Part shown: in pieces, positions 1 through 21,642 of the stretch | Layout of the letters: every line of letters starts with the position of its first letter | How positions within the stretch are numbered: position 1 is the first letter of the stretch | NCBI GenBank assembly: GCA_963844035.1 | Contig: CAWJMT010000035.1 | Location: 9,537-73,536, forward strand | Direction of reading: 5' to 3' | DNA: 64,000 nt | Origin: an uncultured Gemmatimonadales bacterium | GTDB lineage: Bacteria > Gemmatimonadota > Gemmatimonadetes > Gemmatimonadales > GWC2-71-9 | The notes under the pieces: model-generated | The model's input: only the letters and a program-made list of their open reading frames with translations | Databases searched by the model: none | What the model was told of the DNA's origin: nothing | Position numbers and translations under genes: made by a program

Positions 1-118
1 CGGCGCGGTCGCCGCGAGGTAGAATTGCGTTTGTGCGCCCGTGTTCATCTGTGTGGAGCTCGATCACCGGGGCGCCCGGCGGGGCGGGGCGCCGCAGCTT
101 ACGCGCATTCCGTTAGGC
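1..118 (+). repeat. attC-like site, 141-bp family, left ~22 nt cut by the window edge
   Basis: Aligns base-for-base with the 5163-5304 copy from CGGCGCGG..GAGGTAGAATTGCGTTTGTGCGCC to ..GCGCCGCAGCTTACGCGCATTCCGTTAGGC. The R' core GTTAGGC is at 112-118. Confidence 0.8.
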
Positions 119-138
119 AGCACAGGCCGGAGGTCCAT

Positions 139-726
139 ATGCATCACGTCGCGTGGTCCCGGGCCATCCGCATAGCACTCGCGATCGGCGTGTCGTCAGC
201 GCTCCATGCCCAGACCGCTGCTCCGAGACGCGTGGCCATGCGCTTTCTCGTGGGTGCTGCAGTCCCGGTGGCACCCTCGCAGTTCCGCTCTGACTGGGCC
301 CCGGGCTTCAACGCGCTTGCGTCCATTGGGTATCTGGTGTCGTCGCGTGTCGAGCTCGCAGTGGCCGTAGAGTACGGGTCCTTTGGGCCAGGGCATGCCC
401 CCGCTGCACCAGCGCCACCTGCGGTGAAAACCACCCAATTCGCCACTCCGCTGTGGGGCGCCTGGCTCAACGGGGCCTTCACGGCGTCGTCGGCGCGTAC
501 GCGGCCACGCGTGCACCTTGGGGCGGGCGTCGTCGCTCATGGGGCGGCGCGCACCGCGCCCGCCGTCGAGATCGGAGTGGGTCTTGAGAGGTCGCTGGGC
601 GCGCGGATCGGCGCGTATCTCGACGCCACGCTTGTGTACGCATTCACCACGGATCCAACGGGCCAAGCGACGATTGCCGAGGCGTTGTCGTACGCGCCGA
701 TCCGTCTGGGGTTCGTGTGGCGGTGA
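139..726 (+). CDS. Cassette ORF: secreted, outer-membrane beta-barrel-like hypothetical protein
   Basis: There is an in-frame ATG at 139 within ORF 25..726; the upstream part of that ORF reads through the attC. Signal peptide MHHVAWSRAIRIALAIGVSSALHA/QT. The protein is Gly/Ala-rich and its C-terminus ..IRLGFVWR is OMP-like. It starts 21 nt after the R' core. Confidence 0.6.
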   Translation: MHHVAWSRAIRIALAIGVSSALHAQTAAPRRVAMRFLVGAAVPVAPSQFRSDWAPGFNALASIGYLVSSRVELAVAVEYGSFGPGHAPAAPAPPAVKTTQFATPLWGAWLNGAFTASSARTRPRVHLGAGVVAHGAARTAPAVEIGVGLERSLGARIGAYLDATLVYAFTTDPTGQATIAEALSYAPIRLGFVWR

Positions 727-735
727 CCTTGTGCT

Positions 736-838
736 GCCTAACACGCGCTTGAAGCTGCCGGCGCCGTCTTAACTGTGGAGGCCATCCGTTTGTGAACGTT
801 CAAGCATCGTGCGGCAGCTTAAGCGCAATCCGTTATGC
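736..838 (+). repeat. attC-like site, short (103-bp) second family
   Basis: GCCTAACACGCGCTTGAAGCTGCCGGCGCC...GGCAGCTTAAGCGCAATCCGTTATGC. The arms are complementary except for one extra G in the left arm (GCGCTT-G-AAGCTG vs GCGCTTAAGCTG). R' is GTTATGC, one mismatch to GTTRRRY. Confidence 0.7.
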
Positions 839-877
839 GACCTGGTGGCGGCCACTGCGGCATCGATTGGAGGTAAT

Positions 878-1453
878 ATGACAAAGGACATGTTCCGTGA
901 CCGTGAGCGTGGCGAGGAGGCGGCCTATTTCCGTCAGCAGGATGCCAAGCTGATCGCGAAGCTACGTCAGAAGGCCCAGTTGAGCGAGATTGCTCACGCG
1001 CTGGCGGAGAAACTTCACGCGGACGAACCGGCGCTTCTCGAGCGCATCCAGAAGCTCGGCGTCACCCTCGACACGGGTTCGGCGTTCATCCTGGCGCCGC
1101 TGGTCGAAGTCGCCTGGGTCGATGGCAACGTCAGCCATGCCGAGCGTGACACCATTCTGAAAATCGCGAGGCAACGCGGCGTGGCGCCGGGGTCTGCCGA
1201 TCATCGTCAGCTTCTCGATTGGCTAGCCCACCGCCCATCCGACGAAGTCTTCCGGACGGCGTTGGAAGCGATCCGAATCGGCCTCTCCGTCCTTCCGCCC
1301 GACGAATTGGAACAACGGATCGCGGTCATGATCAAGGCGTGCGACGAGGTGGCGCAAGCTGCGGGCGGGATAGCCCAACTGCTCCACCTGGACGGAGTCT
1401 CATACGCGGAGAGCGCGGTGATCGCCGCGATCCGCCGCCATCTGGCAAAGTAG
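878..1453 (+). CDS. TerB-like domain protein (hypothetical)
   Basis: ATG at 878 is preceded by GGAGG at 869-873. The segment APLVEVAWVDGNVSHAERDTILKIARQRGV resembles the TerB/DjlA-N type helical domain. Family assignment is by recollection only. Confidence 0.55.
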   Translation: MTKDMFRDRERGEEAAYFRQQDAKLIAKLRQKAQLSEIAHALAEKLHADEPALLERIQKLGVTLDTGSAFILAPLVEVAWVDGNVSHAERDTILKIARQRGVAPGSADHRQLLDWLAHRPSDEVFRTALEAIRIGLSVLPPDELEQRIAVMIKACDEVAQAAGGIAQLLHLDGVSYAESAVIAAIRRHLAK

Positions 1454-1535
1454 GAAAACGGGCATCAGGCTCGCAGGTCCGGCTGCAAAAGAGGTGTGAA
1501 AACAGACGGGCCGTCGACCATATCCAGGAGATCAC

Positions 1536-2090
1536 ATGAGGCTTGTACTCGTGTCCGTCGTGCTCTTCGGGGCGCTCTCTTGCTCGGATTCGTCCGGACC
1601 AGACATCCAGGGAAGCCTGTCGTTCACGTACACCGGCGCGGGAGGAGGAACGTTCAGCGCGTCGGGAGACGCGCCTTCCTTGACTGCGCCCCCGCCTGGA
1701 ACGAGTTGGGCGGTGGGGTATGTGCAGGCAAGCGAGACTCACGTCGCCGGTTCCACGCCGCGGTCAGGTGTTCTTGTAGACCTCGCGATTCTCCGGCTCG
1801 AGCGCACGACCCCAGGCTCCGCAAGCGTCGACCTTGCGTGCGACCTCGACGGCAGCGCCAGCTGCACCGGAATGGAACTCCTTCTGAACTTCAACGGCAA
1901 CGGCGACACGGGCGACTTCTTCTGCGGCTTGACGAGCGGAACGATCGTTCTCACGGAGGTAACCAGCAGCCGGGCCAAGGGCACGTTTTCGGGAAACGGC
2001 AATTGCATCGCCGGCACCGGAGGAACTTCCTCGGTGTTTTCGGTGAGCAATGGGGCGTTCGACGTCGCGTTGGTTGCGCCGCCCGGCTAG
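1536..2090 (+). CDS. Lipoprotein, hypothetical
   Basis: ORF 1536..2090. N-terminus MRLVLVSVVLFGALSC has a lipobox Cys. The mature part is Gly/Ser/Thr-rich. Confidence 0.65.
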   Translation: MRLVLVSVVLFGALSCSDSSGPDIQGSLSFTYTGAGGGTFSASGDAPSLTAPPPGTSWAVGYVQASETHVAGSTPRSGVLVDLAILRLERTTPGSASVDLACDLDGSASCTGMELLLNFNGNGDTGDFFCGLTSGTIVLTEVTSSRAKGTFSGNGNCIAGTGGTSSVFSVSNGAFDVALVAPPG

Positions 2091-2105
2091 ATCAAGACCG
2101 TGGCG

Positions 2106-2126
2106 GCCTAACCGGCGCTTGGAACG
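2106..2126 (+). repeat. Truncated attC left arm (short-family type)
   Basis: GCCTAACCGGCGCTTGGAAC resembles GCCTAACACGCGCTTGAAGC of the 736-838 site. It lies 16 nt after the lipoprotein stop. No right arm follows; the reverse-strand module begins at 2133. Confidence 0.45.
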
Positions 2127-2132
2127 GGCGGG

Positions 2133-2888
2133 CTAATGAGGTGGCGCGCGCCTCACCAGCGACTCAAGGGTCTCGAGCGCGGCGCCGGCCGCGGACAGGC
2201 GCTCCACTTCCGACGTGAGTTCCCGGCAACGTGCCTCGGCGCGCGCGCGACCAGATTGCGCCTCCTGCAGGCGCGTGTCCAGATCGGCCAGCTCTGCCTC
2301 CGCTTCTTGCAGCAGCGCCGCCCGGTCTTCGAGCCCGCGCAGTCCGGCGATCTCTTCGAGCACCTGGTCGCGTTCGGCGGCGAGCGCTTCTGCCTCGGCC
2401 ACCGCCTCATCGGCGATCCGCCGCCGCTCCTCGGCCTGGGCCTCGAACGAGCCCCTAGCCCGGCGTTCCTTCTTCAGCTCGGCCTCGCCCCGGGCGAGCG
2501 CGGCGCGGGCCTCGTCCAGCTCCCCGGCCAGCCGGGACCGTTCCTCGATCGCGGACTCGAGCTTGGCGCGCAACAAGTCGATCAACTCCCGCACGGCCGC
2601 CGCGGTCTGCTGAGGCTCGGCCTCGCCGGCGGACCCGCGCGCGGTCGCCGCCAGTCGCTCCCGCAGCGACGCGGTCCGCTCCCGACCGCTCTTCCCGCGC
2701 GCGACGCGCGGGCTCGGTTGCGGAGTTGCCGGCGGAGGCGTGACGTCGGGCGTCGGCGCGAGGACGACCGACTCGATACTGGTGGGCGGCGTCCCGTTTT
2801 CGGAGCCGGCCGTGAGCTCGGTGAGCACGCGGGAGATCGGCCGCGGCTTACGGGCTGGAACGTTGGCGTCGAAACCGCGTGTCGTCAC
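2133..2888 (-). CDS. Pro/Ala-rich N-terminus + C-terminal coiled-coil protein (PomX-like architecture)
   Basis: This is the frame of ORF 2133..3029. A GTG at 2888 overlaps the ParA stop as GTGA, indicating translational coupling. The N-terminus is ..PPTSIESVVLAPTPDVTPPPATPQPSP. The C-terminal ~150 aa are heptad-like and Glu/Ala/Arg/Leu-rich. Confidence 0.7.
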   Translation of the reverse strand: MTTRGFDANVPARKPRPISRVLTELTAGSENGTPPTSIESVVLAPTPDVTPPPATPQPSPRVARGKSGRERTASLRERLAATARGSAGEAEPQQTAAAVRELIDLLRAKLESAIEERSRLAGELDEARAALARGEAELKKERRARGSFEAQAEERRRIADEAVAEAEALAAERDQVLEEIAGLRGLEDRAALLQEAEAELADLDTRLQEAQSGRARAEARCRELTSEVERLSAAGAALETLESLVRRAPPH

Positions 2889-3850
2889 GCGCTCTTCTCC
2901 ATCGCGCGCTCGAGGCGCGCGCTGATCATCAGGCCGATGAGAGCGTCGATGTCCTTGGCGCCCTTGCACGATGGCGCGAAGGCATTGACGGGCAGGCCCT
3001 CGCTGGATGCCTGCGCGAACTGCGTGCATTGCCGCACGACCGCGTCCGACAGGAACTCGCGATAGTGCGTTTCCAGCGCCGCTTTTGCCTCGCGCGCGAT
3101 CCTGGTCGTGGGGTTGTATTGATTGATGACGATCAGGATCCGCTGCAGCCGGTGGTTCAGATCGTCCTCGAGTTGGCCCAGGGTCTCGAACAGCAATTTG
3201 AGACCGTGAAACGACAGGAAATCCGGGAGCACCGGGACGAGCAAGTCATCGGAGGCCATCAACGCATTGAGGTTCAGGAGCCCGAAGGAGGGCGGGGCAT
3301 CCATGACGATGAAATCGTAGCGATCAGACACTCGGGCGAGGGCCCGCTGGAGCTTGTACTCCCGCCCGGCCATCGGCATGAGACTGATGTCAATCGTCGT
3401 CATCCGCAGGTTGGCCGGGAGCACATCGAACTCCGCCAGCACTGTTCCCACGATCACGTCTTCGATCGGGACCCCGCCGACCATCACGTCGAAGACCGTG
3501 CGCTCGAAATTCTCGCCGGCGAGGCCCAGATGCCGGGTCGCGTGCCCCTGCGAATCGAGGTCGATCAAGAGCACCCGGTGGCCCATTTCTGCGAGCCGGT
3601 AGGCGTAGGCCACGGAAAGGCTGGTCTTGCCGGTGCCACCCTTGAAGTTCAGGAAGAGCTGGCGGCGCAGCGGCTCCCGGCCAGGGTAGCAACCCAACAC
3701 TCTGCGGTACGCCGACAGGTGTCGCGGCTGGTAGGAGTCGGGTCCGCCGCCCAGCCGTTTCAGCTCGGCCAGTTTGTCGGCGTCGGTGAGCAGCGTGTCG
3801 GTGAGCCCCAGGAGCTTGGCAAAGTGCCTGCGCTGGTAGTGGATCTCCAC
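2885..3850 (-). CDS. ParA/MinD-family P-loop ATPase with a ~65-aa N-terminal extension (PomZ-like position)
   Basis: Deviant Walker A FKGGTGKTS, then LLIDLDSQGHAT and a Walker B-like FIVMDAPPS. The GTG start overlaps the upstream gene's stop by 1 nt. Confidence 0.9.
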   Translation of the reverse strand: MEIHYQRRHFAKLLGLTDTLLTDADKLAELKRLGGGPDSYQPRHLSAYRRVLGCYPGREPLRRQLFLNFKGGTGKTSLSVAYAYRLAEMGHRVLLIDLDSQGHATRHLGLAGENFERTVFDVMVGGVPIEDVIVGTVLAEFDVLPANLRMTTIDISLMPMAGREYKLQRALARVSDRYDFIVMDAPPSFGLLNLNALMASDDLLVPVLPDFLSFHGLKLLFETLGQLEDDLNHRLQRILIVINQYNPTTRIAREAKAALETHYREFLSDAVVRQCTQFAQASSEGLPVNAFAPSCKGAKDIDALIGLMISARLERAMEKSA

Positions 3851-4977
3851 TAGGACGCTCGCTGCACGATGCCGGTCTCCGAGCGCCCGGGGTCTTGGGC
3901 GCGAAGGATCTGAAGGACGATGCGCCGCACCTGGGGGTCGGGATCACCGGTGAGCGGCTCGAGGAGCGGGCGCAGGGCCACCCCTCGCGCCGCGGCCGCG
4001 GCGAGCACCGCGCGGCGGCGAACGTGGGGGTTGGCGTCGGCGATCCCCCACCGGATGTGGGGCTCGAGCCGCACCGGGTCCCGTTGCAGCAGCCGGCCGA
4101 GCGCGTGGTACGCCGCGGCGCGCACGATCGGATCTTCTGCGGTGGCCCAAGGGCGAACGGCGTAGAACGCGTCGTCCCCGCCACGGCGGCCGAGACGGAG
4201 GAGCAGATCCACCTGGTCCTGTGGGCGCTCCGCCGCCGCCAGTGCCGCGACCAACCCGTCCGCAGGGGGACGCTCCGGCGTCACCGCGGCGGCAGCCGGC
4301 TCAGTGAGCTCCAGCATCTGTGGTGGGGTCGTCGCCTGGTCGAGCTGCTCGCGCAGGGCGGCCTCGCGGCGCTCTCCCAAGGCGTTGTCCCGTTCGAGGT
4401 CGAGGAGGGCGCGGCGCAGACTGCCGATGAACTCGGCAAGATCTACGGCTTCGGTGTCGCCGTGGCGCACGGAGCGTTGCCACTCGACCACCCGCGTGAG
4501 CAGGGTCTCGCGGGATGCCACCAGCTCGTCCACGCGCGCTCGCAGCTGCGAGGTCGTCTGTTCGCTGCCCGCGATACGCTCCCGGGCGGCAGCCGCTTCC
4601 CGCCGCAGGCGCACCAGCTCCTGCGCGTCGTCGCGCGCCTCTGACTCGAAGACATGTCCCTGCAGGTTGGCGCGCAGCGCCTCGGAGTGTTCCAGTCGCC
4701 GGTGTAGGGCGGCGACCTCCTCACGGGCCTGGGCGACCTCGCCCTGGAGCCGGCTGAGACGCTGAGTTTCGCCGACCTCACGCGCGGCGGCCTCGGCGAG
4801 GCGAACGCGGGCCAAGTCCGCCTCGGCGCGCGCCTCGTCGAGCGCGCCGCGCAATTGCTCCAGCCGGCACTCGAGCAGTACGGTCCGGTCCGAGCCGGCG
4901 GGCGGAGCCGAGCCCGCCGAGAGGCTGCCTCGACGCGGAGCCGTTACGCCTTCTCGCAGGGCAAGACCATGTATCAT
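3850..4977 (-). CDS. N-terminal coiled-coil + C-terminal HEAT-repeat protein (PomY-like architecture)
   Basis: ORF 3850..4977. Residues ~35-215 are coiled-coil-like. The C-terminus has repeated DP.VR..A units (DPIVRAAAYHALGRL, ANPHVRRRAVLAAA, DPDPQVRRIVLQIL) typical of HEAT/PBS-lyase repeats. Confidence 0.8.
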   Translation of the reverse strand: MIHGLALREGVTAPRRGSLSAGSAPPAGSDRTVLLECRLEQLRGALDEARAEADLARVRLAEAAAREVGETQRLSRLQGEVAQAREEVAALHRRLEHSEALRANLQGHVFESEARDDAQELVRLRREAAAARERIAGSEQTTSQLRARVDELVASRETLLTRVVEWQRSVRHGDTEAVDLAEFIGSLRRALLDLERDNALGERREAALREQLDQATTPPQMLELTEPAAAAVTPERPPADGLVAALAAAERPQDQVDLLLRLGRRGGDDAFYAVRPWATAEDPIVRAAAYHALGRLLQRDPVRLEPHIRWGIADANPHVRRRAVLAAAAARGVALRPLLEPLTGDPDPQVRRIVLQILRAQDPGRSETGIVQRAS

Positions 4978-5162
4978 CAGTATAGCAAAACGCGTCAGTC
5001 CGCGAAACCCATGAGGTCAAGTCAAGTCCCCTGAACCGGGCCCACCGGCCAGGTTTGGATTACTTGGTGCGGTGATCGCGCCAGCCGTCATATTCGGGGT
5101 GGCGACCCTTTGGCCCGTGGTTCTCGGCGGGCACGCTCGTTGACTCCTCCGGCGGTGGGGGA

Positions 5163-5304
5163 GCCTAACAAGCGCGTGAAGCTGTCGGCGCGGTCGCTTC
5201 GAGGTAGAATTGCAGTTGTGCGCCAGCGTATCATCTGTGAGCGGCTTGATCACCGGGGCGCCCGGCTGGACGGGGCGCCGCAGCTTACGCGCATTCCGTT
5301 AGGC
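5163..5304 (+). repeat. attC-like site, 141-bp family, complete
   Basis: GCCTAACAAGCGCGTGAAGCTG...CAGCTTACGCGCATTCCGTTAGGC. The R''/R' cores are exact complements. The left arm GCGCGT-G-AAGCTG carries one unpaired G relative to the right arm. Confidence 0.85.
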
Positions 5305-5472
5305 AGCACACTCCAATCCTTGATGTTTACTTGACGGTGTCATGCAATGCTTCCGGGCACCTCGTTCGGAGCATTGCCCATGACTGCGAAGCGCGCTGTT
5401 CTCCCGCTTGGTTTAACTCGGCGGGCGGGTTGTCCGCGGCTCATGCGCGATCCGTTAGGCAGCGGCCATACC

Positions 5473-5835
5473 ATGCGATCTCTAACCTTACTCGTGGCCA
5501 GTCTCGCCCTGCTTGCCCCGGTCTCTGCGTGCGGCGCCGGCTGGCAGCGACTACCGGCCGTCACACCCGGGGCTTTCGAGCCCCGTCAGCAGGTGCAGAT
5601 TTGGCATGCCGGGACCGTCTCCCGCTGGCATGCTGTGGTGATCGGCCCCGACTCAATTTCCGGAATTCCTTACTATAAGGTGGTGGACTGCGATAGCTGC
5701 CGCACTCGCGTACCTCGCAGCGTCGTGGACTCCATTCGCGTCGGGGATCCCGTCGCAGGGTTCTGGAAATCTGTCGGACTCACTCTTGGGCTCATGTTCG
5801 CCTTCTGTTACGCGACGTGCCCCAGGGGGGATTGA
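5473..5835 (+). CDS. Cassette ORF: small lipoprotein, hypothetical
   Basis: In-frame ATG at 5473 within ORF 5347..5835. N-terminus MRSLTLLVASLALLAPVSAC has a lipobox. The stop is 8 nt before the next attC. Confidence 0.6.
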   Translation: MRSLTLLVASLALLAPVSACGAGWQRLPAVTPGAFEPRQQVQIWHAGTVSRWHAVVIGPDSISGIPYYKVVDCDSCRTRVPRSVVDSIRVGDPVAGFWKSVGLTLGLMFAFCYATCPRGD

Positions 5836-5842
5836 GGGCGCT

Positions 5843-5983
5843 GCCTAACAAGCGCGTGAAGCTAGCGGCGCGGCCTCTTCGAGGTAGAATTGCGTTTGTG
5901 CGCCAGTCTTTGTCTGTGTGGGACTTGATCACTCGGGCGCCCGGCGGGGCGCGGCGCCGCAGCTTACGCGCATTCCGCTAGAC
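5843..5983 (+). repeat. attC-like site, 141-bp family, with a mutated R' core
   Basis: Full-length copy, but the right core reads GCTAGAC (5977-5983) instead of GTTAGGC, so the G/TT crossover triplet is altered. Confidence 0.8.
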
Positions 5984-6003
5984 GGCGGCAAAGGGCGAGA
6001 CCT

Positions 6004-6735
6004 GTGTCGAACGAGTTCGCGAACGTCTATCAGGATCAAGCTCGGGCCGACGCCTATGCGCAGCTCGAGTTTCCGGGTACCTACTTCCTAGCCTTTCGGG
6101 ATCTGCCGACGCTGTTCCACGAGCACGTCCGTGGCCGGCTGGCACTCGACTTTGGCTGCGGGACGGGGCGTTCGACGCGCTTCCTCCGGGGTCTCGGCTT
6201 CAGCCCTATCGGCGTGGACATTGCCGATTCAATGCTCGCTCGGGCGCGCGAGCTTGATCCGCGGGGTGAATACCGGCTGGTTGGGGATGGAGACTTGAGC
6301 GGACTGCCCGAGGCGACGTATGACCTCATTCTGTCAGCGTTCACGTTCGACAACATCCCGACGCTGGATCGGAAGGCAGCGTTGCTCGGAGCACTGCGGC
6401 TTCGCCTTAAGCCCTCGGGACGTCTGGTCAACCTCGTTTCAACACCCGACATCTACGTCCATGAGTGGGCCTCATTCTCCACGCGCGATTTCCCAGAGAA
6501 CCGCTTGGCTAAGAGCGGGGGTCGCGTTCGCATAGTGATGTTGGATGTGGGTGATCGTCGGCCCGTCGAGGACATCGTTTGTTCAGACGAGGACTACGTG
6601 CGTCTGTATGCCGCCGCCGGGCTGGAGGTGGTCGCTAGGCACGACCCGCTGGGACAACCCACCGATGGCATCGCCTGGGTCAGTGAGACAACGGTAGCGC
6701 CGTGGGCAATCTACGTCCTCGCGCGCGGTGCGTAA
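6004..6735 (+). CDS. Cassette ORF: class I SAM-dependent methyltransferase
   Basis: GTG start 21 nt after the attC. Motif I LDFGCGTGRSTRFL. Overall Methyltransf_11/25-like layout. Confidence 0.85.
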   Translation: MSNEFANVYQDQARADAYAQLEFPGTYFLAFRDLPTLFHEHVRGRLALDFGCGTGRSTRFLRGLGFSPIGVDIADSMLARARELDPRGEYRLVGDGDLSGLPEATYDLILSAFTFDNIPTLDRKAALLGALRLRLKPSGRLVNLVSTPDIYVHEWASFSTRDFPENRLAKSGGRVRIVMLDVGDRRPVEDIVCSDEDYVRLYAAAGLEVVARHDPLGQPTDGIAWVSETTVAPWAIYVLARGA

Positions 6736-6745
6736 CACGCGCTTG
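6730..6745 (+). repeat. Remnant of a short-family attC left arm
   Basis: GCGTAACACGCGCTTG matches GCCTAACACGCGCTTG (736-751) at 15 of 16 positions. It contains the methyltransferase stop (6733-6735) and is followed 5 nt later by a 141-bp-family attC. Confidence 0.5.
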
Positions 6746-6750
6746 CCGCC

Positions 6751-6891
6751 GTCTAACAAGCGCGTGAAGCTGGCGGCGCGTGCTCTTCGAGGTAGAATTG
6801 CGTTTGTGCCCCCGTCTCCATCTGTGGAGCGGTTGATCATCGGGGCGCCCGGCGGGGCGGGGCGCCGCAGCTTACGCGCAATCCGTTAGGT
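6751..6891 (+). repeat. attC-like site, 141-bp family, complete
   Basis: GTCTAACAAGCGCGTGAAGCTGGCGGCGCG...GCGCCGCAGCTTACGCGCAATCCGTTAGGT. Both cores fit RYYYAAC / GTTRRRY. Confidence 0.85.
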
Positions 6892-6911
6892 GCCTTTCCG
6901 AGGGTAACCCA

Positions 6912-7703
6912 TTGCAGGTAGCAAAGAAGCTCGTCCTCGTCACTGGCGCCTCATCTGGCATTGGAGCAGCCGTAGCTCACGGCATGGCCCGCCGTGGAGC
7001 GCGGCTCATTCTCGTGGCACGGGACCCTGCACGACTGTCGGCGGTTGCCAGAGAGCTCGCGTCCCTTCCGACCGAGGCCCACGTTTACGCTGCCGACCTC
7101 GCCGACCCGAAGGCTGTTGAAGCATTGGCCCACGACGTGAGCGCCCGGCACGGGACCCCCGATGTGTTGGTGAACAACGCGGGCGCTGGCCGCTGGCTCA
7201 CGATCGAGGAAACATCTGCAGAGGAGCTCGAGCAGATGATGGCGGTGCCGTACTTTGCAGCATTCAACCTCACGCGTGCCTTCCTGCCGGGCATGCGGCG
7301 CCGGGGAACTGGCCACATCGTCAACGTCACCTCTGTGGCCAGTCGACTCGTGTGGCCAGGGGCTGCCGCGTATACGGCCGCGCGTCGTGCCGTCGTGGCG
7401 TTCTCTGAATCACTGCGCACTGAACTTGCGGGGACTGCCTTGAGGGTCACCGTCACCACCTTTGGCACCGTGTCAACACCCTACTGGGCCCACAATCCTG
7501 GAAGCGAGGACCGCCTCCCCCTCGCCGATCGATCAATACCACGGCTGACGGCCGAGGCGGCCGCAGAGGCTCTTTGCCGCGGCGTGGAGCGCGAGAGAGC
7601 CGAAGTCATCTTGCCTCGGCGCTTTCGGCTGCTGTTCCTTCTCAATGCCGTGGCTCCTAAGAGCACGGCCCAGATACTTCGGCGGGGGTGGAAAGGCGCC
7701 TAA
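6912..7703 (+). CDS. Cassette ORF: short-chain dehydrogenase/reductase (SDR)
   Basis: TTG start 21 nt after the attC. Cofactor motif VTGASSGIGAAVA, NNAG, and YTAAR.A resembling the catalytic YxxxK region. The stop TAA lies inside the next GCCTAAC core. Confidence 0.9.
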   Translation: MQVAKKLVLVTGASSGIGAAVAHGMARRGARLILVARDPARLSAVARELASLPTEAHVYAADLADPKAVEALAHDVSARHGTPDVLVNNAGAGRWLTIEETSAEELEQMMAVPYFAAFNLTRAFLPGMRRRGTGHIVNVTSVASRLVWPGAAAYTAARRAVVAFSESLRTELAGTALRVTVTTFGTVSTPYWAHNPGSEDRLPLADRSIPRLTAEAAAEALCRGVERERAEVILPRRFRLLFLLNAVAPKSTAQILRRGWKGA

Positions 7704-7718
7704 CAAGCGCGTGAAGCC
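7698..7718 (+). repeat. Truncated attC (left arm only)
   Basis: GCCTAACAAGCGCGTGAAGC matches the family consensus, after which similarity is lost. No R' core follows before the next ORF. Confidence 0.6.
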
Positions 7719-7803
7719 TCCCTCAAGCCTCTTGGGCCTCTCTGCACTCCTGGGTCACCGAGCGTCGCGGTGAGGCGACGAACTCCGTGAAGAAACGAGG
7801 CCC

Positions 7804-9336
7804 GTGATGATCCGGCATCTGTCATACATCGTTCTTGTTCTGGTGCCGGCATGCACGCCGGACGTGGCACCCTCAGCGGCCGGGGACGCGGTCTTCTGTG
7901 CCACGATCCACCGAGACACGGCCGTTGGCCTGGCCCGGCAACTGCAGCCCGTGGAGTCCCTGATGGCGCGTAAGACCGGCGCGTACGTGCTGGAGGACGG
8001 CGGCGGCGCCCTGATCGCACGCGCCTGGCTGAGCGAGTATGCCGACCACACTATCGACGTTCAGTATTTCATCTTCTCCGCGGACAACATTGGGCTCATT
8101 GCGGCAGACTATCTCGTCCGTGCGGCCGACCGGGGGGTCAGGGTTCGGGTGCTCGTGGACGACCTCCTGCTGGAGGCGGATGCCACGGTATTGCTGGCCC
8201 TCGACGCGCACCCGAATCTTGAGATCCGCATCTACAACCCCACTGTGAACATCGGGAAGAAGCTTCCGCGAAGGCTCTTCAACGTGATCACAGACTTCCG
8301 CGGAATCAACCAGCGGATGCACACCAAGACCTTTATCGTGGATGGACGCATCGTGATAACCGGGGGGCGGAACATCGCAGACGAGTATTTCGACTATGAT
8401 CACGAGTATAACTTCCGCGACCGGGATGTTCTCCTCCTTGGCGGGGTCGCCACCCAGGTCGAGGCGGTCTTTGAGCAGTTCTGGAATGACGCGCTGAGCC
8501 GCCCGGTCGGGGAGCTGGTACACGCCTCGGCAGCGAATCGCCCCGATCCCGCTCGCCTCGAATGGCTGCATCAGTACGCGTGCAATCCTGCCAACTACTG
8601 GCCTCAGGTCCGGGAGCGGGTGAACAGTATTCCCGTTGCCTTTGAAGAGCTGCGGGCCTCCGGCAAGCTGCAGTGGCTCGACAGCGTGACCTACGTTGCC
8701 GATGTGCCCGGAAAGAACGATGGCAGTCGGGGTCTAGGAGGTGGCGGTGCCACGCTTGACGCCCTCATGGCTCTCGTGCAGCATGCCCACACTTCGGTCG
8801 CCATTCAGTCGCCTTACGTGGTCACGACGGACTTGGGTCGATCGGTCCTGCGCGACGCCGTCGAGCGCGGGGTCGAGGTCCGACTCCTCACGAACAGCCT
8901 GGCCTCGACGGATAACCTGGAGGCCTTCAGCGGCTATCAAAGGGATCGGGAGGCGCTGCTGCGAACCGGCGTCCGCGTGTTCGAGTTCCGTCCCGACGCC
9001 GCCGAACGCGTGACGATCATGACGGGGGCACTGCCGCCGACGCTGACTCACCTACCCATCTTTGGCCTGCATGCCAAGTCCATGGTGATCGACCGACACA
9101 TCACAGTGATCGGCACCTTCAACTTGGACCCGCGCAGCGCCAACCTCAACACGGAATGCATCACGGTCATCTACTCGGACCGGATCGCGTCGGAGGTGCT
9201 GGCGGGAATGGAGGTGGAGTTCCGACCGGAGAACGCATGGGAGACTACGCTGAGTGCGAACCCCGATGCGCGCGCCGGCCTAATCAAGCGCATGAAGGCC
9301 TGGACTCGGCGCGTTGTACCCAAGAGCATACTGTAG
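7804..9336 (+). CDS. Phospholipase D / cardiolipin-synthase-like protein, lipoprotein signal
   Basis: Two HKD motifs (RMHTKTFIVDGRIVITGGRNIADEY and GLHAKSMVIDRHITVIGTFNLDPRS). N-terminus MMIRHLSYIVLVLVPAC. Confidence 0.9.
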   Translation: MMIRHLSYIVLVLVPACTPDVAPSAAGDAVFCATIHRDTAVGLARQLQPVESLMARKTGAYVLEDGGGALIARAWLSEYADHTIDVQYFIFSADNIGLIAADYLVRAADRGVRVRVLVDDLLLEADATVLLALDAHPNLEIRIYNPTVNIGKKLPRRLFNVITDFRGINQRMHTKTFIVDGRIVITGGRNIADEYFDYDHEYNFRDRDVLLLGGVATQVEAVFEQFWNDALSRPVGELVHASAANRPDPARLEWLHQYACNPANYWPQVRERVNSIPVAFEELRASGKLQWLDSVTYVADVPGKNDGSRGLGGGGATLDALMALVQHAHTSVAIQSPYVVTTDLGRSVLRDAVERGVEVRLLTNSLASTDNLEAFSGYQRDREALLRTGVRVFEFRPDAAERVTIMTGALPPTLTHLPIFGLHAKSMVIDRHITVIGTFNLDPRSANLNTECITVIYSDRIASEVLAGMEVEFRPENAWETTLSANPDARAGLIKRMKAWTRRVVPKSIL

Positions 9337-9348
9337 AGAGGCGCGCGC

Positions 9349-9450
9349 GCGTATCAAGCGCGTGAAGCTGCCGGCGCGGTCTCCGCGGGGTGGAATTGCG
9401 TTCTGTGCGTCCGTACTGCATCTGGTGGAGCGGTTGTGGTGAAATCGGGA
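9349..9450 (+). repeat. Truncated, degenerate attC (left ~two-thirds)
   Basis: GCGTATCAAGCGCGTGAAGCTGCCGGCGCGG..GGAATTGCGTTCTGTGCG..GAGCGGTTG follows the family consensus with a degenerate R'' (GCGTATC). The right arm and R' are absent. Confidence 0.6.
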
Positions 9451-9543
9451 GACAGCGCTGGTCTTGAGGGGGCAGTGGCGCCGAGCCGTCCCGGTTCGAG
9501 TTCGGGCCAGGGCATGTCTCGGAAGGTTATCCCCAGGTGGCGC

Positions 9544-9810
9544 TCAGGGGATGCCGCTTCCCATCCTGTAGCCCCAATCGAAGCACACGCCAGCATTGGA
9601 CGCGAAGCACTCGAACTGCGCGATGAGGACCGAGTAGTAGGGCGACGCATCAGTTGGTTGCCGATACCGATTCCAGCCGGCGAACGGCTTGTCGGACCTC
9701 CAATAACACTCCGTGCCGTAGAGAGACGGATAGTAGGACACGAGCGCCCCGCCCGTCACGCAAGTTCCGAGATTGATGAAATTGACTAGCACGCTGCCAA
9801 CGTTGTACAT
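9544..9810 (-). CDS. Reverse-oriented small Cys/aromatic-rich hypothetical protein
   Basis: Only the last 88 codons (from ATG 9810) of ORF 9544..10638(-) look coding: MYNVGSVLVNFINLGTCVTGG..YGTECYWRSDKPFAGWNRY..FECFASNAGVCFDWGYRMGSGIP. The rest of that ORF runs through an attC. The start is uncertain (GTG at 9831 or 9858 is possible). Confidence 0.4.
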   Translation of the reverse strand: MYNVGSVLVNFINLGTCVTGGALVSYYPSLYGTECYWRSDKPFAGWNRYRQPTDASPYYSVLIAQFECFASNAGVCFDWGYRMGSGIP

Positions 9811-9999
9811 CGATGACCATCGGACGCGCACGGCGGAGGCAGATGTCCCGTCGCACACCTCGAAGGCTGCCCCGTTTTCACACGCCGCTCGTGAATCGGA
9901 GCGTGCGAAAGACCTCGACGGTGCCTCGGCATCGCGAGGTCGACGAGTTTCTGGCCCGCAAGATCTGTCGCGATCTTGAAGTTCCTGAAGCGCTCCGAC

Positions 10000-10126
10000 G
10001 CCTAACAAGCGCGTGAAGCTGGCGGCGCGGCCCTCACGAGGTAGAATTGCGTTTGTGCGCCCGTCTGCATCTGTGGATCGGTTGATCATCGGCGTGCCCG
10101 GCGGGGCGGGGCGCCGCAGCTTACGC
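10000..10126 (+). repeat. attC-like site, 141-bp family, lacking the R' end
   Basis: Matches the consensus from GCCTAACAAGCGCGTGAAGCTG through ..GCGCCGCAGCTTACGC. The expected GCATTCCGTTAGGC is then replaced by unrelated sequence. Confidence 0.75.
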
Positions 10127-10143
10127 CGCCTCTCGCGCGCCGC

Positions 10144-10683
10144 GTGAGAGCGTTCGTCGCCGCGCTCTGCGCGCTCCCCTGGCTTGCAGCGCAGGCCGAC
10201 GAGCTCTCCATCTTCAAGACCTGGCTCGATCGCGAGCATCCCGGCTACCACTCCGACGAAGGGCCCGCGCCGTTCCGCAACAAGACCGTCGAGGCCGCGT
10301 ATCCTGGGGTGCACTTCTACTACGTGCTCACCTACCCGCGGGGGATCCCGCCACCGTACCGCAACATGCTGACGCTCGTCGCCCAAGTGGACGAGCACGG
10401 CGCCGTGCTGCCGGTTCGCGCAATGGAGACGTTTCGGCGCGGCCTTCGCCCGGTGAAGACTAAGGAAGACGCGCCCAAGGTGGCCGCCGCCGTCCTCATC
10501 CTCGCATTCAGCGATCCGGGACAGCGGCGCTGGCCGTTCGTGCCCGAGAAATTCGTCGTGAAGCGGAAGAGCGGCGGCTGGGTTTGCACCTATTCCACCG
10601 GCTTTGGGTACGAGTCGGTCGTCACCTTCGACAAACATGGGACGCTCGTGTCCTTTAGCGCGAACGCCCCGCCTGTGGGCTAG
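10144..10683 (+). CDS. Secreted hypothetical protein
   Basis: GTG start. Signal peptide MRAFVAALCALPWLAAQA/DE. No motif recognised. Confidence 0.6.
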   Translation: MRAFVAALCALPWLAAQADELSIFKTWLDREHPGYHSDEGPAPFRNKTVEAAYPGVHFYYVLTYPRGIPPPYRNMLTLVAQVDEHGAVLPVRAMETFRRGLRPVKTKEDAPKVAAAVLILAFSDPGQRRWPFVPEKFVVKRKSGGWVCTYSTGFGYESVVTFDKHGTLVSFSANAPPVG

Positions 10684-10703
10684 GCGACGCAGACCTCTAA
10701 AAC

Positions 10704-10988
10704 ATGCCTGCGTACTTCAGCGTTCATCGGGTCTTTCACCTCACCGGCACAGGGCCAGTCGTCGCGGGCCATATTCTCGACGGCGTCATTCGATCCGGGA
10801 TGCTTGCTGCCATCGATGATCGTCCGGACCTCGGTCCGTGGCGGATCGGGGACGTGGGTTTTGCCGACAACGTCTCCCAGGCCAAGCGTTACGTGCTGCT
10901 CACGTTCCCGACTGTCCTATTGGTGGATGATCTGTGCAACGCACTGCCCCCTGGAAGCGTTTTGACGATCAACAACCCTGATCCATAA
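10704..10988 (+). CDS. Small hypothetical protein (possible EF-Tu domain-2-like beta barrel)
   Basis: ORF 10704..10988. VFHLTGTGPVVAGHILDGVIRSGM resembles the translation-factor domain 2 signature. This is a weak call. Confidence 0.45.
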   Translation: MPAYFSVHRVFHLTGTGPVVAGHILDGVIRSGMLAAIDDRPDLGPWRIGDVGFADNVSQAKRYVLLTFPTVLLVDDLCNALPPGSVLTINNPDP

Positions 10989-11076
10989 CGCCATGCCATC
11001 AAAGACAGGCTGGAAGGCGCGGATGCCAGCGCCTTCGATCGAGTCTTTGTGGCGATGGGGTTCGCTACGGGGGCCC

Positions 11077-11628
11077 ATGAGACCGCTGCGATACTCGATC
11101 AACGTCACCCTCGACGGGTGCTGCGATCACCGGGTGGGGATCGCGGACGAAGAGTTGCACTCCCATGCCGTCGTCAATCTCGAACGAGCCGATGCGCTGC
11201 TGTTTGGCCGCGTGACCTACGAGATGATGGAGGCTGCGTTTCGGCCGTCGGAGCGGACGGGAGCGCTACTTGATTGGATGGTCCCCTTCGCCCGGAAGAT
11301 CGACGCGGCAAGGAAGTACGTCGTGTCGAGCACCCTGGACCGGGTCGATTGGAACGCGGAGCTCGTGCGGGGGGACCTGGGGAAAGCCGTTCAGCAGCTC
11401 AAGCGTGAGCCGGGCAAAGGCCTGCTCGTGGGAGGCGTGAAGCTCCCGCTGGCTTTGGCGAGCCTGGGATTGATCGATGAGTACGAGTTTGTCGTGCACC
11501 CCATCCTGGCGGGCCGAGGGCCGACGTTGTTCGCTGGCTTGAGCGAGCGGATCGATCTGCGGCTCGTGGGCCGCCAGCAGTTCCGGTCGGGGGCGGTGGT
11601 TCTGCGTTACCAGCCCGCGAAGCTGTAA
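11077..11628 (+). CDS. Dihydrofolate-reductase-like (RibD C-terminal domain) family protein
   Basis: In-frame ATG at 11077. MRPLRYSINVTLDGCCDH.. then ALLFGRVTYEMMEAAFRP and GKGLLVGGVKLPLAL are typical of the RibD_C family. Confidence 0.8.
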   Translation: MRPLRYSINVTLDGCCDHRVGIADEELHSHAVVNLERADALLFGRVTYEMMEAAFRPSERTGALLDWMVPFARKIDAARKYVVSSTLDRVDWNAELVRGDLGKAVQQLKREPGKGLLVGGVKLPLALASLGLIDEYEFVVHPILAGRGPTLFAGLSERIDLRLVGRQQFRSGAVVLRYQPAKL

Positions 11629-12452
11629 TGCGCGACTTGTCGAAACGGTTGCGCGGCGGCGATTTCCGCCACGCCGTCGAGGCGGTGGCGGCGTTGCGTC
11701 ACTTGGACCCGGCGACCGGCGCGGACCTCGTCCCTTCGATCGACCCGAAGGACGAGCAGCGGGCATTCCAGCTTCTGATCGCGCAACTGGTGGCCGTCGG
11801 CGGCGTGCACCACCTGGCGGCGCGGTGGCGCGACTTGCCGTCGCCGCAATGGCGCGAAATGCTGGTGAGCGAGATCGGCCAGGCCTTTCACCTGTGGGTC
11901 GACGAAGGCACCATCGAGCTGTTGCTCGCCGCGCTTGACGATCCGGACGACAACGTTGCGCGACGGGCCGTGAAGCTGCTCACGGGCTGCCTCCGCGAGC
12001 CACCGGCCAAGGAGCGCAAGGAAATCGCGAAGACGCTTCGCGGCAAGGCAGCGCTCAAGGCGTGGGACCAGGCCGCCGCATGGATGACTCCGGCGCGGCG
12101 TGCCCGGGTCGCCAAGGCCGTGACCGCCGCGCTCGATCGCTGCGCCGACAATCCGCAGGCGCTGACTTGGCCGGACGACTACATCGAGCTCCTCGGCCAC
12201 AGCGCGACCTGCACTGACCAGCACGCCATCGCACTGCTGGAGGGGTTTCGCAAGATGGCAGGCGAGACGCGCGGCTCCGAATTCGAGGCGCTCGATCCCG
12301 AAAACCTGCCGTGGCCCACGTCAATTCTCGCGAAAAAGAAGGGCATCCCGCCCGGTACGCCGTTCGTTCGCGTCCGGTCCATACCCACCGGTCTCCTCGA
12401 CCTCAAGGGGCTGGAGGACGCCATCGAGCGCATTCGACGCCGCGAGGTTTGA
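11628..12452 (+). CDS. HEAT-like repeat hypothetical protein
   Basis: The ATG overlaps the previous stop (TAATG). LLLAALDDPDDNVARRAVKLLTG is a HEAT-type unit. Helical composition. Confidence 0.6.
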   Translation: MRDLSKRLRGGDFRHAVEAVAALRHLDPATGADLVPSIDPKDEQRAFQLLIAQLVAVGGVHHLAARWRDLPSPQWREMLVSEIGQAFHLWVDEGTIELLLAALDDPDDNVARRAVKLLTGCLREPPAKERKEIAKTLRGKAALKAWDQAAAWMTPARRARVAKAVTAALDRCADNPQALTWPDDYIELLGHSATCTDQHAIALLEGFRKMAGETRGSEFEALDPENLPWPTSILAKKKGIPPGTPFVRVRSIPTGLLDLKGLEDAIERIRRREV

Positions 12453-12457
12453 CCACC

Positions 12458-12757
12458 ATGCGCAAACTCATTGTCTGCAACATCATCTCGCTTGACGGCT
12501 GCTTTTCCGGCCCGGGTGGGAACGTCATGGTCATGCCGTTCGACAACGGCTTCTCGGATTACAACGCGGAACGGCTCCGGGTCACGCTCTCTGGATGGTT
12601 CTTCCTCACGCTTGGACTCTTCCCCATGTTTGCCGTAGGACTTTGCCAACGAGGGCCCGGACAAACGAGCGCGACCGTGTTCATGGTGCTGGAAGGTGTC
12701 TTGCTGGTCCTTGGACTGGTGATGACCTTCCAGGCTTATCGTCGCGAGGTTGTGTAG
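12458..12757 (+). pseudogene. RibD_C-like gene fragment fused to an unrelated hydrophobic tail
   Basis: MRKLIVCNIISLDGCFSGPGGNVMVMPFD is a family-typical N-terminus. After ~45 aa the reading frame becomes hydrophobic (WFFLTLGLFPMFAVGL..VLLVLGLVMTF), and no frame continues the family. Confidence 0.45.
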
Positions 12758-12777
12758 CAACCCATCACGGAGCAATC

Positions 12778-13581
12778 ATGCGCTGGATCCCCGGTAGCCG
12801 AAGCGAAAACCTCGAGGACCGCCGCGGCCAACGATTCGGCGGTTTCGGCCGACTTGGTCTGGGAGGCGCGGTCATCGTCGTGGTTCTCAGCCTCGTGTTT
12901 GGGCGTGACTTCACCGGAATCTTGACTGACGGCGGGGAAGTCGGCTCCCAGTCCGCTCCGGACGGGTCCGCGGCACCAGTCCAGTCCACGCCCCAGGAAG
13001 AACGGCTCGTCGACTTCGTCTCGTTCGTGCTGGACAGCGCGCAGGCCACCTGGGCCCGGATCCTGCCGCAGCAAGGCGCCCGCTATCGCCCCGCGAAACT
13101 CGTGCTGTTCCGCGATGCGGTGCAGTCCGCCTGCGGGTTCGGCCAGGCCGCCAGTGGGCCGTTCTACTGTCCTGGCGACGAAAAGGTGTACATCGACCTC
13201 GGCTTCTTCGAGGAGCTCAAAACCCGCTTCGGCGCCCCTGGCGATTTTGCCCAGGCCTACGTTCTCGCCCATGAGCTCGGCCACCACGTCCAGAACCTGC
13301 GCGGCACCATGGGCGCGGCGCGCGACAACCAACAGTCCGTCCAGATCGAGCTGCAGGCCGACTGCCTTGCGGGCGTCTGGGGCTACCACGCGTCCCGGCA
13401 GAACCTGCTCGAGCCCGGTGACGTGGAAGAGGGCATGGGTGCCGCAGCGGCGGTCGGCGATGATCGAGTGACCGGCGGCCGCGTGAGCCCCGAGAACTTC
13501 ACCCACGGCTCGTCCGCCCAACGCATCGCCGCGTTCCGGCGCGGGCTCACGTCCGGCCGCGTAGCTGACTGCGGCCCCTAG
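12778..13581 (+). CDS. YpfJ-like neutral zinc metallopeptidase, copy 1
   Basis: ATG at 12778 within ORF 12595..13581. MRWIPGSRSENLEDRRG, one TM segment, and an HELGHH zinc motif (AYVLAHELGHHVQN). Confidence 0.9.
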   Translation: MRWIPGSRSENLEDRRGQRFGGFGRLGLGGAVIVVVLSLVFGRDFTGILTDGGEVGSQSAPDGSAAPVQSTPQEERLVDFVSFVLDSAQATWARILPQQGARYRPAKLVLFRDAVQSACGFGQAASGPFYCPGDEKVYIDLGFFEELKTRFGAPGDFAQAYVLAHELGHHVQNLRGTMGAARDNQQSVQIELQADCLAGVWGYHASRQNLLEPGDVEEGMGAAAAVGDDRVTGGRVSPENFTHGSSAQRIAAFRRGLTSGRVADCGP

Positions 13582-13602
13582 AGGTGAAGGATTCATGATC
13601 TC

Positions 13603-15117: not shown

Positions 15118-15230
15118 GATCGTGACGTCCATGGACGCAATCACGCTCGATGATAGTGATGGAGCCGAGGCGCTGCCCATCTGTCGCTCCAGCCCCACAC
15201 CGCTGCGCTCCCTCTCGCGCCCGCCGCTGA

Positions 15231-15248
15231 ACGCTCCTATCGTTAGGC
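15231..15248 (+). repeat. attC right-arm remnant (R' core GTTAGGC at 15242-15248)
   Basis: ACGCTCCTATCGTTAGGC compared with the family ACGCGCATTCCGTTAGGC. It lies between the MltF-like stop and the next ORF. Confidence 0.45.
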
Positions 15249-15315
15249 CGCATTCTCCCAACAGGCGGCATCCCTGATAGACCGTTGGTATCTGCTCCGG
15301 GTCAAGACGGCAGGG

Positions 15316-16594: not shown

Positions 16595-16854
16595 AGAGTG
16601 GAGAGTGACACATCATCATTGAGTCGACTCTGCGATATCATCGCAACGATGATAACCACCCCAACACCCAAGGGAGCACGGCATCCCGCACCAGTAACGG
16701 TGTCGCGTCACCGCGACACCTCCTCCGCCCGCCGATTGCGCGCTCAGAGACGCGGAAGTTAGGTTGGACAAAAGCGACGGCAACCCGCGCCCTGAGGCTC
16801 GATGCGCTCCACCGTTCGGGCTTTTTCCCGGCCCTAGCCGGTCACGGAGGTCCT

Positions 16855-17241: not shown

Positions 17242-17250
17242 AAACCTTGG

Positions 17251-17266
17251 GCGCGGTCCGTTAGGC
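17251..17266 (+). repeat. attC right-arm remnant (R' core GTTAGGC at 17260-17266)
   Basis: GCGCGGTCCGTTAGGC vs the family GCGCATTCCGTTAGGC (13 of 16). It lies 10 nt after the preceding stop and 18 nt before the next ATG. Confidence 0.5.
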
Positions 17267-17283
17267 CGCGGCTCGGAGGAATC

Positions 17284-17673: not shown

Positions 17674-17682
17674 TAGCCCGCG

Positions 17683-17762: not shown

Positions 17763-17770
17763 TTCGGAGC

Positions 17771-19897: not shown

Positions 19898-19904
19898 AGA
19901 CCTC

Positions 19905-21621: not shown

Positions 21622-21642
21622 GTATGACGGGGTGACGTGGCA

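Follow-up and report, generated by a model that had tools for sequence, protein, structure and literature searches.

Evidence for a sedentary chromosomal integron cassette array in a Gemmatimonadales bacterium and for the attC family to which its sites belong

A family of attC-type repeats in the first 10 kb

We analysed a stretch of 64,000 nucleotides (nt) from an uncultured Gemmatimonadales bacterium (contig CAWJMT010000035.1 of assembly GCA_963844035.1, positions 9,537 to 73,536), hereafter the window, and conclude with high confidence that its positions 1-10126 show part of a sedentary chromosomal integron cassette array. A preliminary description of this DNA, made from the letters alone, had read the repeats found here as attC sites of an integron. 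All testable predictions of that reading were borne out, namely those on a covariance model built from foreign sequences, the orientation of the sites, the anatomy of the cassettes, the link to integrases and the geometry of the extrahelical bases. The conclusion is based on direct observation of the sites, their fold, the family they form, the cassettes between them, the association of this family with integron integrases and the chromosomal setting.

A direct-repeat search recovered a family of 121-143 nt at 1-121, 5163-5307, 5839-5986, 6747-6894 and 9996-10143. The five copies listed in the preliminary description are therefore all present, on the + strand, but they are not 'near-identical' as stated there, since the 141-nt copies of the window share 77-86% identity in ungapped comparison. 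Besides four full or edge-cut copies of about 141 nt, the + strand of 1-10126 carries a copy that lacks the 3' core, a shorter version of 103 nt and several stubs. Not in the earlier list are this 103-nt version (736-838), what remains of a right arm (5411-5460) and left stubs at 2106-2134, 7698-7718 and 9349-9430; further remnants follow to the right at 15242, 15905, 16758, 17260, 17683, 19868, 21644, 24984 and 50955. Every copy and remnant in the window is in + orientation. Motif searches gave all their matches on the + strand as well, with 7 matches to the left-arm motif AACAAGCGCGTGAAGCTG at up to 3 mismatches (0.05 expected in shuffles) and 5 to the right-arm motif (0.00 expected in shuffles).

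The ends of the window copies fit the integron cores R'' and R' (RYYYAAC/GTTRRRY), with GCCTAAC or GTCTAAC on the left and GTTAGGC or GTTAGGT on the right. That the copies begin and end in these core motifs, as previously described, is correct for most of them and incorrect for two: 5843-5983 ends in GCTAGAC, and 10000-10126 has lost its last ~14 nt together with R'. The 103-nt copy at 736-838 has GTTATGC as R'. The next open reading frame (ORF) begins close behind the repeat, as had been noted, with five starts (139, 878, 5473, 6004 and 6912) measured at distances of 12-39 nt. A single + strand ORF was said to precede each copy. This holds for the cassettes 113-838, 5455-5983, 5978-6891 and 6886-7718; the copy at 5163 instead follows a block of three genes on the minus strand, and the long ORF before the copy at 10000 is also on the minus strand.

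Fold and extrahelical bases

DNA folds of both strands of the full copies yield a 7-bp R box (GCCTAAC/GTTAGGC), an unpaired spacer with AAG opposite CATTCC, and an L box in which positions 16 and 23 of the + strand are unpaired with exactly 6 bp between them. The pairing of the arms with two unpaired bases on the left, proposed from reading the sequence, is thus recovered on both strands. In canonical attC sites, the arm opposite the bottom-strand AAC triplet carries two or three extrahelical bases (positions 16 and 23/24), the first and last of which are separated by a 6-bp stem (Nivina et al. 2016, PMC5027507). [quoted passage not shown] The geometry identifies the + strand as the top strand, in agreement with the ORFs on the + strand.

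The same attC family in other loci

We scanned for related sites in two ways. A gapped arm pattern matched three contigs of Gemmatimonadales metagenome-assembled genomes (MAGs; L001, L002 and L004). One more match to this pattern, in an Alphaproteobacteria MAG (L003), does not align with the family and was discarded as a chance match. A scan with the right-arm pattern returned metagenome contigs, at least 120 of them of soil type, and the site counts given here are drawn from these loci. Among the matches listed for loci L005-L124, 458 full sites were found in 119 contigs with a median spacing of 500 bp. Not one of the 119 contigs carries sites on both strands, as the integron reading predicts.

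The attCs are 57-144 nt long with main classes of 90, 102 and 141 nt. Their arms are nearly invariant (consensus GCCTAAC-AAG-CGCKTGAAGCTGNCGGCGCG ... CGCGCCGCAGCTTAMGCG-CGATCC-GTTAGGC) and the centres vary between length classes; the R'' and R' core positions are 96-100% conserved over 449 members. Most lengths are multiples of three (90, 93, 102, 108, 132, 138 and 141 nt make up ~80% of sites), a regularity that some constraint on a short ORF through the right half of the site might explain. The segments between sites have the anatomy of cassettes: in 288 of the 335 segments the longest ORF lies on the attC top strand and covers 88% of the segment, starting ~26 nt after the crossover point and stopping ~12 nt before the next site.

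The fold is conserved across the family. Over 150 aligned sites, 97.1% of cells are paired as compared to at most 43% in slid controls, and 169 double-sided changes were counted against 53 in shuffles, with compensatory change in 7 pairs. One pair occurs in all four Watson-Crick types (T-A 363, C-G 36, G-C 12, A-T 5). The first extrahelical base is nearly fixed, the top strand having G16 (bottom strand C16) in 445 of 449 unique sites, and the second one is variable (bottom-strand base 23: C 51%, T 24%, G 19%, A 6%). The remark that the extra base of the left arm is canonically placed but of unusual identity, a G on the + strand, is therefore valid for the family as a whole.

To score the window copies we used a covariance model, R1, built from 40 family sites of which none came from the window. 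R1 matched the window on the + strand alone, at 6751-6891 (83 bits), 5163-5304 (82 bits), 736-838 (78 bits, E 3e-21) and 5843-5983 (69 bits), with E-values of 1e-18 to 1e-22; weaker matches were obtained at 10000-10138 (38.1-43.7 bits), at the 5'-cut copy 1-118 (34 bits) and, weakly, at 5411-5460. Six sites are significant within 10 kb. A family model of foreign sequences, used in place of the generic attC model suggested for these repeats, thus recognizes the window copies on one strand only.

Integron integrases adjoin arrays of this family

Integron integrases adjoin arrays of this attC family in four loci (L126, L127, L089 and L022). An IntI1 query matched L089, L022 and L098 among the loci. 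The IntI homolog of L089 is 48% identical to IntI1 and has the IntI-specific segment (...KYPQAGREWGWQWVFP...). With this protein as query we obtained thousands of full-length relatives, several of which are named integron integrase by their sources; two of them, P0042 and P0050, are entered as 'integron integrase [Gemmatimonadales bacterium]'. The TIGR02249 model (cut-off 265) was matched end to end by P0037 (327 residues; 453 bits) and P0042 (450 bits). In a Gemmatimonadales MAG (L125), intI stands beside dnaX-ybaB-recR ... grpE-dnaJ, and the contig ends just past intI. In the L089 gene (1270-2127, minus strand) we observed an in-frame internal deletion of ~46 amino acids (aa) over the region of the first catalytic Arg; a full-length version of the protein exists (P0001, 97% identity). 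The intI of L022 (138-330, + strand) is present as fragments in two frames.

L126, a contig of 1.47 Mb, and L127 each carry intI at 10001-10984, with 9 and 7 attCs of the family, respectively, behind it on the same strand. The two share 98.2% identity as far as nt 11100, where a GTTAGGC located 116 nt after intI ends; beyond this base they carry different cassettes, and the first cassette of L127 recurs in L126 at 15328-15736 with 88% identity. The same end of the putative attI region (...AATTCACGTTAGGC) is shared by L089 and L125. Identity up to the GTTAGGC of the putative attI followed by divergence indicates cassette exchange. This pattern is what insertion at attI and reshuffling of cassettes would leave, and from the comparison of these two related contigs we infer that the family is recombined; it is the best evidence to this effect.

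In L089 and L022, too, intI lies upstream of the attCs and is co-oriented with them. Given this shared orientation in relatives, any intI of the source genome would be expected left of position 1, on the + strand. The relatives suggest that such a gene may be present in that genome.

A second type of recombinase occurs in some of these loci. The recombinase matched in L098 was rejected as an IntI because it is Xer-like. L126 also has an Xer-like recombinase (4816-5745), 4 kb upstream of its intI, and in L098 (16-708 and 1649-2358) a relative 85% identical to it has attCs of this family about 1 kb further on, with no intI between. The gap between this Xer-like gene and the attCs contains a 28-nt mini-palindrome, GCCTAACGCGCGCACCGGCGTGTTAGCC.

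Proposed mechanism and alternative explanations

On the integron interpretation, the minus (bottom) strand of each site, when single-stranded, would form a hairpin made up of the R box, a central spacer left unpaired and the L box, in which two bases separated by 6 bp are flipped out. This hairpin would be the substrate that an integron integrase binds and cuts, within the 5'-AAC-3' of R'; the ORF and its attC could then leave as a circle and be inserted again at attI. Upstream of position 1 one would expect, on the + strand, an intI gene, intact or as a pseudogene, and then ...CGTTAGGC. The array is partly fossil, and a further ~15 kb of former cassettes retains attC fragments alone before the core chromosome is reached.

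Several observations weigh against this interpretation. With the same IntI1 query, tblastn found no IntI-like tyrosine recombinase in the 64-kb window, and no attI was found there; within the window, the structure formally qualifies only as a cluster of attC sites lacking an integrase (CALIN), though an intI may stand next to the array beyond the left edge. Two of the integrases found beside the family, those of L089 and L022, are themselves degraded. Many sites of the window are damaged, about 4-5 of the ~11 in the first 10 kb keeping both arms and an intact GTT; R' is mutated at 5983 and missing at 10126, and stubs stand alone at 2106, 7698 and 9349. Given this damage, the local array may no longer recombine. 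The extrahelical bases also differ from the usual ones, the bottom strand having C16 in place of G and no conserved T at position 23. The identities G16 and T23/24 are described as 'usual' and not as required (PMC5027507). A natural site, attC dfrA1, has C as its second extrahelical base, T-N6-C sites were recombined well by IntI1, and C was favoured by IntI2*179E and SonIntIA (Larouche and Roy 2011, PMC3053210).

Much of this would be expected if the attCs are real but the genome has lost intI or keeps a pseudogene of it, leaving the cassettes frozen and decaying. We regard such a fossil array as a possibility to be taken seriously, if a somewhat doubtful one. About half of the sites in 1-10126 are without an arm or the GTT triplet, the 15-kb tail consists of remnants only, and decay reaches the integrases of relatives (the 46-aa deletion in L089, the fragments in two frames in L022), while the attCs of L098 stand next to an Xer-like gene with no intI between. 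However, the sites 736-838, 5163-5304, 6751-6891 and 1-118 are intact and score like sites of active arrays, and there are relatives with intact integrases and evidence of cassette exchange. The array also passes the left edge of the window, and its integrase-proximal part lies outside.

It is, on the other hand, highly improbable that the repeats are palindromic elements unrelated to integrons, such as repetitive extragenic palindromes (REP), miniature inverted-repeat transposable elements (MITE) or enterobacterial repetitive intergenic consensus (ERIC) sequences, spread by transposition or acting as stabilisers or terminators. Imperfect palindromes of ~141 nt between genes are what such a family would look like, and single-copy fold z-scores are merely -2.5 to -3.4 in the long class. 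Yet the orientation is uniform in 119 of 119 contigs, the ends are exactly RYYYAAC/GTTRRRY and the geometry of the extrahelical bases is canonical for attC. Arrays begin at an integron integrase, and near-identical contigs diverge exactly past GTTAGGC. A role in termination is not favoured either: no T-run follows the hairpins, terminator-like sites show no enrichment in 1-11000, and none of the five found there coincides with an attC or with its end. The core region (28-64 kb) holds one trace of the repeat, the left half at 50955-51029, and the covariance model has no significant match there on either strand. On the strength of orientation, cassette anatomy and the integrase link we rejected this explanation, and we retain a sedentary chromosomal array.

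Organization of the array and its decayed continuation

The features of the array are as follows.

1-118, + strand: attC of the 141-nt class, 5' part cut by the window edge; R' GTTAGGC at 112-118; 34.4 bits.
113-838, + strand: cassette with ORF 139-726 (195 aa, no Pfam match) and the 103-nt attC 736-838.
833-2134, + strand: fused cassette or cassettes with ORF 878-1453 (TerB-like), ORF 1536-2090 and the stub 2106-2134 (GGCCTAACCGGCGCTTGGAAC...).
2133-5162, minus strand: block of three genes, coiled-coil 2133-3029, ParA-like ATPase 2885-3850 and HEAT-repeat 3850-4977.
5163-5304, + strand: full attC of 142 nt, R'' GCCTAAC, R' GTTAGGC; 81.7 bits, E 8e-22.
5305-5460, + strand: segment without a gene, ending in the degenerate attC right arm 5411-5460 (GCGGCTCATGCGCGATCCGTTAGGC); 16.2 bits, E 0.02.
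5455-5983, + strand: cassette with lipoprotein-like ORF 5473-5835 and the 141-nt attC 5843-5983; 68.6 bits.
5978-6891, + strand: cassette with S-adenosylmethionine (SAM) methyltransferase ORF 6004-6735 and the 141-nt attC 6751-6891 (GTCTAAC...GTTAGGT); 83 bits, E 3e-22.
6886-7718, + strand: cassette with short-chain dehydrogenase ORF 6912-7703 and the attC remnant 7698-7718.
7804-9430, + strand: phospholipase-D-like ORF 7804-9336 and the attC stub 9349-9430 (63% identity).
9431-10126, + strand: segment whose sole long ORF (~9544-9810, Cys-rich) is on the minus strand, and attC 10000-10126.
10127-25100, + strand: decayed continuation of the array, with accessory genes, mostly on the + strand, and attC remnants, all on the + strand.
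50955-51029, + strand: isolated attC left half and centre (including GGTAGAATTGCGTTTGTG), upstream of the Zn-peptidase gene 51071-51883.

The attC cut by the window edge at 1-118 implies that the array continues to the left. Several cassettes of the window are fused through loss of an attC arm, and the state of the sites differs along the array. At 5843-5983, mutation of R' to GCTAGAC has removed the GTT crossover triplet; the attC behind ORF 6912-7703 is reduced to its first ~21 nt, with the TAA stop of the ORF within R''; the stub 9349-9430 keeps left arm and centre and has lost the right arm; and attC 10000-10126 is without its last ~14 nt, R' included. Among the cassette products are lipoproteins and a protein of no assigned function that looks secreted. 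Homologs of ORF 5473-5835 are cassettes in L015, L097 and L126. The block on the minus strand has a GC content of ~72% as compared to 62-66% in the cassettes. It is reversed, with an attC left stub on one side and a full attC on the other, and encodes a ParA/MinD-like ATPase of the AAA_31 type; a TATACT hexamer is found just upstream of its first gene.

Beyond 10126, R1 has no significant match in the 64-kb window, nor has it any on the minus strand, and the tail is recognized by remnants: R'-type ends at 15242, 16758 and 17260, R''-type starts at 15905, 17683 and 21644, and centre stubs at 19868 and 24984. Within the last of these, a GTG at 25020 starts the gene 25020-25490, which belongs to the Pfam family Cass2, 'integron-associated effector binding protein'. 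Other genes of the tail have counterparts in cassettes elsewhere. The gene 13603-15117 is 84% identical at the nucleotide level to L001 2666-4168, where an attC follows, the gene 18937-19719 matches attC-flanked cassettes in L073, L002 and L045, and the gene 10993-11628 matches one in L011. The 84% identity to L001, a Gemmatimonadales MAG locus, and the attC family itself are indirect signs that the host belongs to Gemmatimonadales. Core genes are found from ~28 kb (28-46 kb), including TrpRS/TyrRS-type and class II aminoacyl-tRNA synthetases, PurA and PriA, and GC rises from 0.62-0.66 in the cassette region to 0.68-0.73 in the core. Taken together, the remnants, the cassette homologs, the core genes and the rise in GC argue that the array is chromosomal and that decay has turned its distal part into ordinary genes.

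Some further observations were made in the window. The gene of a Zn-metallopeptidase (PF04228) is duplicated together with its ribosome-binding region (12764-13583 and 51057-51885, 94.5% identity); one copy lies in the decayed array and the other 38 kb away in the core, directly behind the attC left half 50955-51029, which suggests that a gene of cassette origin was copied from the array to a site outside it. The heptamer GTAGAAT occurs nine times in the 64 kb, always on the + strand, and eight of these occurrences are within attCs or attC stubs, whereas the ninth (CGCTGGTAGAATGTGAACGATG) is isolated, at 51952, just after the second peptidase copy. An Rfam scan of the window found nothing in the array; Rfam contains no family for attC sites. 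The scan returned a c-di-GMP-I-GGC riboswitch aptamer on the minus strand at 36209-36284 (62.7 bits, gathering score 59), located between two genes of the + strand, an oxidoreductase (35114-36118) and a glycerate kinase (36408-37484).

The attC centre as a possible expression module

The centre of the sites contains a conserved motif, GGTAGAATTGCGTTTGTG in the 141-nt and 102-nt classes and GTAGATTAGGGAATG in the 90-nt class. We considered whether, in addition to its role in recombination, the attC centre doubles as an expression module made of a -10-type promoter and a leaderless short ORF. This idea is compatible with a cassette array and comes from sequence patterns; we put it forward tentatively and think it rather unlikely. 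A leaderless transcript would begin at an ATG or GTG lying 5-7 nt downstream of a hexamer TAnnnT (TAGAAT, TAGATT or variants) located in the unpaired centre. The resulting ORF of 14-28 codons would run through the right arm and stop at the TAG of GTTAGGC, ~20 nt before the start of the next cassette gene, which usually has no Shine-Dalgarno (SD) sequence, so that the attC would supply both transcription and the hand-over of ribosomes.

Several patterns in the sites speak for such a module. On the top strand, TAnnnT-N5-8-RTG is found in 152 of 172 sites of the 90-nt class and in 52 of 70 of the 102-nt class, with the start nearly always in frame with the TAG of R'; on the bottom strand it is found 3-4 times, and after shuffling of the centres in 35 of 449 sites. 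In the 102-nt class, conservation of GGTAnnnTT...TTTGTG far exceeds that of the unpaired flanks. Positions T1, A2 and T6 are constant among hexamer variants, and the length classes differ by multiples of 3. An SD core precedes just 24% of 303 cassettes, and cassette starts lie a median of 20 nt after the attC. Stubs made of left arm and centre have been kept before the genes at 17683, 19868, 24984 and 50955, and at 25020 the GTG itself is used as the start of the Cass2-family protein. Core operons have a comparable layout, TAnnnT-N6-8-start (36408, 28738 and 37491 in the window; dnaX of L125 with TAGATT-N7-ATG). A precedent exists in ORF-11 and in short attC ORFs that end in the core-site TAG (PMC8876359).

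These patterns are countered by others. There is no match to a -35 element, and a two-hexamer sigma-70 scan of 1-11000 calls no attC centre. The motif is present in only 31 of 202 sites of the 141-nt class, the 90-nt class is too uniform to give a signal of differential conservation, and another reading frame is equally open. Because the classes are homologous, their shared start codons are not independent events, and the stubs would precede the next gene anyway through the geometry of the array. If the module is real, expression along a long array would be independent of the distance from Pc, and the survival of left-plus-centre attC halves before the domesticated genes at 17683, 19868, 24984 and 50955 would be explained.

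Outside the attCs, TAnnnT is located 5-9 nt upstream of the start codon, with no SD, in first genes at 36408, 28738 and 37491 of the window, at 616 in L125 (dnaX) and at 10001 in L126 (intI), with layouts such as TGCATAAT-gcgac-ATG and TAGATT-gatcctg-ATG. In Actinobacteria and Deinococcus-Thermus, the layout TAnnnT-N6-8-start marks leaderless mRNAs (PMC3898074, PMC12340547). These starts hint that leaderless or near-leaderless mRNAs are common in the lineage.

Significance and comparison with known systems

The element is of an ordinary kind in a lineage that is little studied. Integrons outside Proteobacteria are known mostly from surveys of integrases, and those of Gemmatimonadota appear in the literature as entries in phylum lists only (PMC8618304); no description of a Gemmatimonadota attC family was found in the literature searched. 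The traits worth noting here are the fixed C at extrahelical position 16, the co-oriented intI and the conserved centre motif. The lineage now has a defined attC family, with an arm consensus, classes of 90, 102 and 141 nt, an N-N6-C signature, a co-oriented intI and a putative attI core. Because the family is abundant in soil metagenomes (at least 120 contigs), it could allow a considerable part of the soil cassettes to be traced to a host lineage. With its fixed C at position 16, the family lends itself to a natural test of the way IntI reads this base, and the attC promoter with its short ORF, if real, would bear on how the distal cassettes of large chromosomal arrays get expressed.

Compared to canonical attCs such as attC aadA7 of class 1 integrons (PMC5027507), the sites described here share the RYYYAAC...GTTRRRY cores, the order of R box, spacer and L box, the variable terminal structure, the extrahelical bases 16 and 23 with a 6-bp stem, and the ORF in front of the site. 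They differ in having bottom-strand C16 (99%) where G is usual and a variable base 23 where T is conserved, and in being 90-141 nt long with very conserved arm sequences. The C of attC dfrA1 (PMC3053210), a site from a mobile integron, is likewise natural; it is the second extrahelical base and has A-N7-8-C spacing, whereas in the present sites N6 spacing, the canonical one, goes with a C that is fixed throughout a chromosomal family.

With the Vibrio cholerae superintegron, whose attCs are the Vibrio cholerae repeats (VCRs), and with the Xanthomonas arrays, the array shares its chromosomal location, the long succession of small and mostly uncharacterised cassettes, the high similarity of attCs within a lineage and a cassette GC unlike that of the host core. 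In contrast to those arrays, the host belongs to Gemmatimonadota, intI reads along the cassettes, the same arms occur in at least three attC length classes, and the array in the window is heavily eroded. An integron with an 'inverted integrase' is also found in Treponema denticola. Integrons of this type form a sub-clade of the soil/freshwater IntI clade (PMC8352920), and by arrangement alone they resemble L126, L127, L089 and L022, in which intI reads along the cassettes.

Finally, ORF-11 of attI1 and the short ORFs in attCs, which promote termination-reinitiation (reviewed in PMC8876359), share with the putative short ORF of this family a stop at the TAG in positions 3-5 of GTTRRRY, just before the next start. 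Here, such a putative ORF is found in every attC of the family, and it follows a -10-like hexamer and not an SD, which suggests a leaderless layout.

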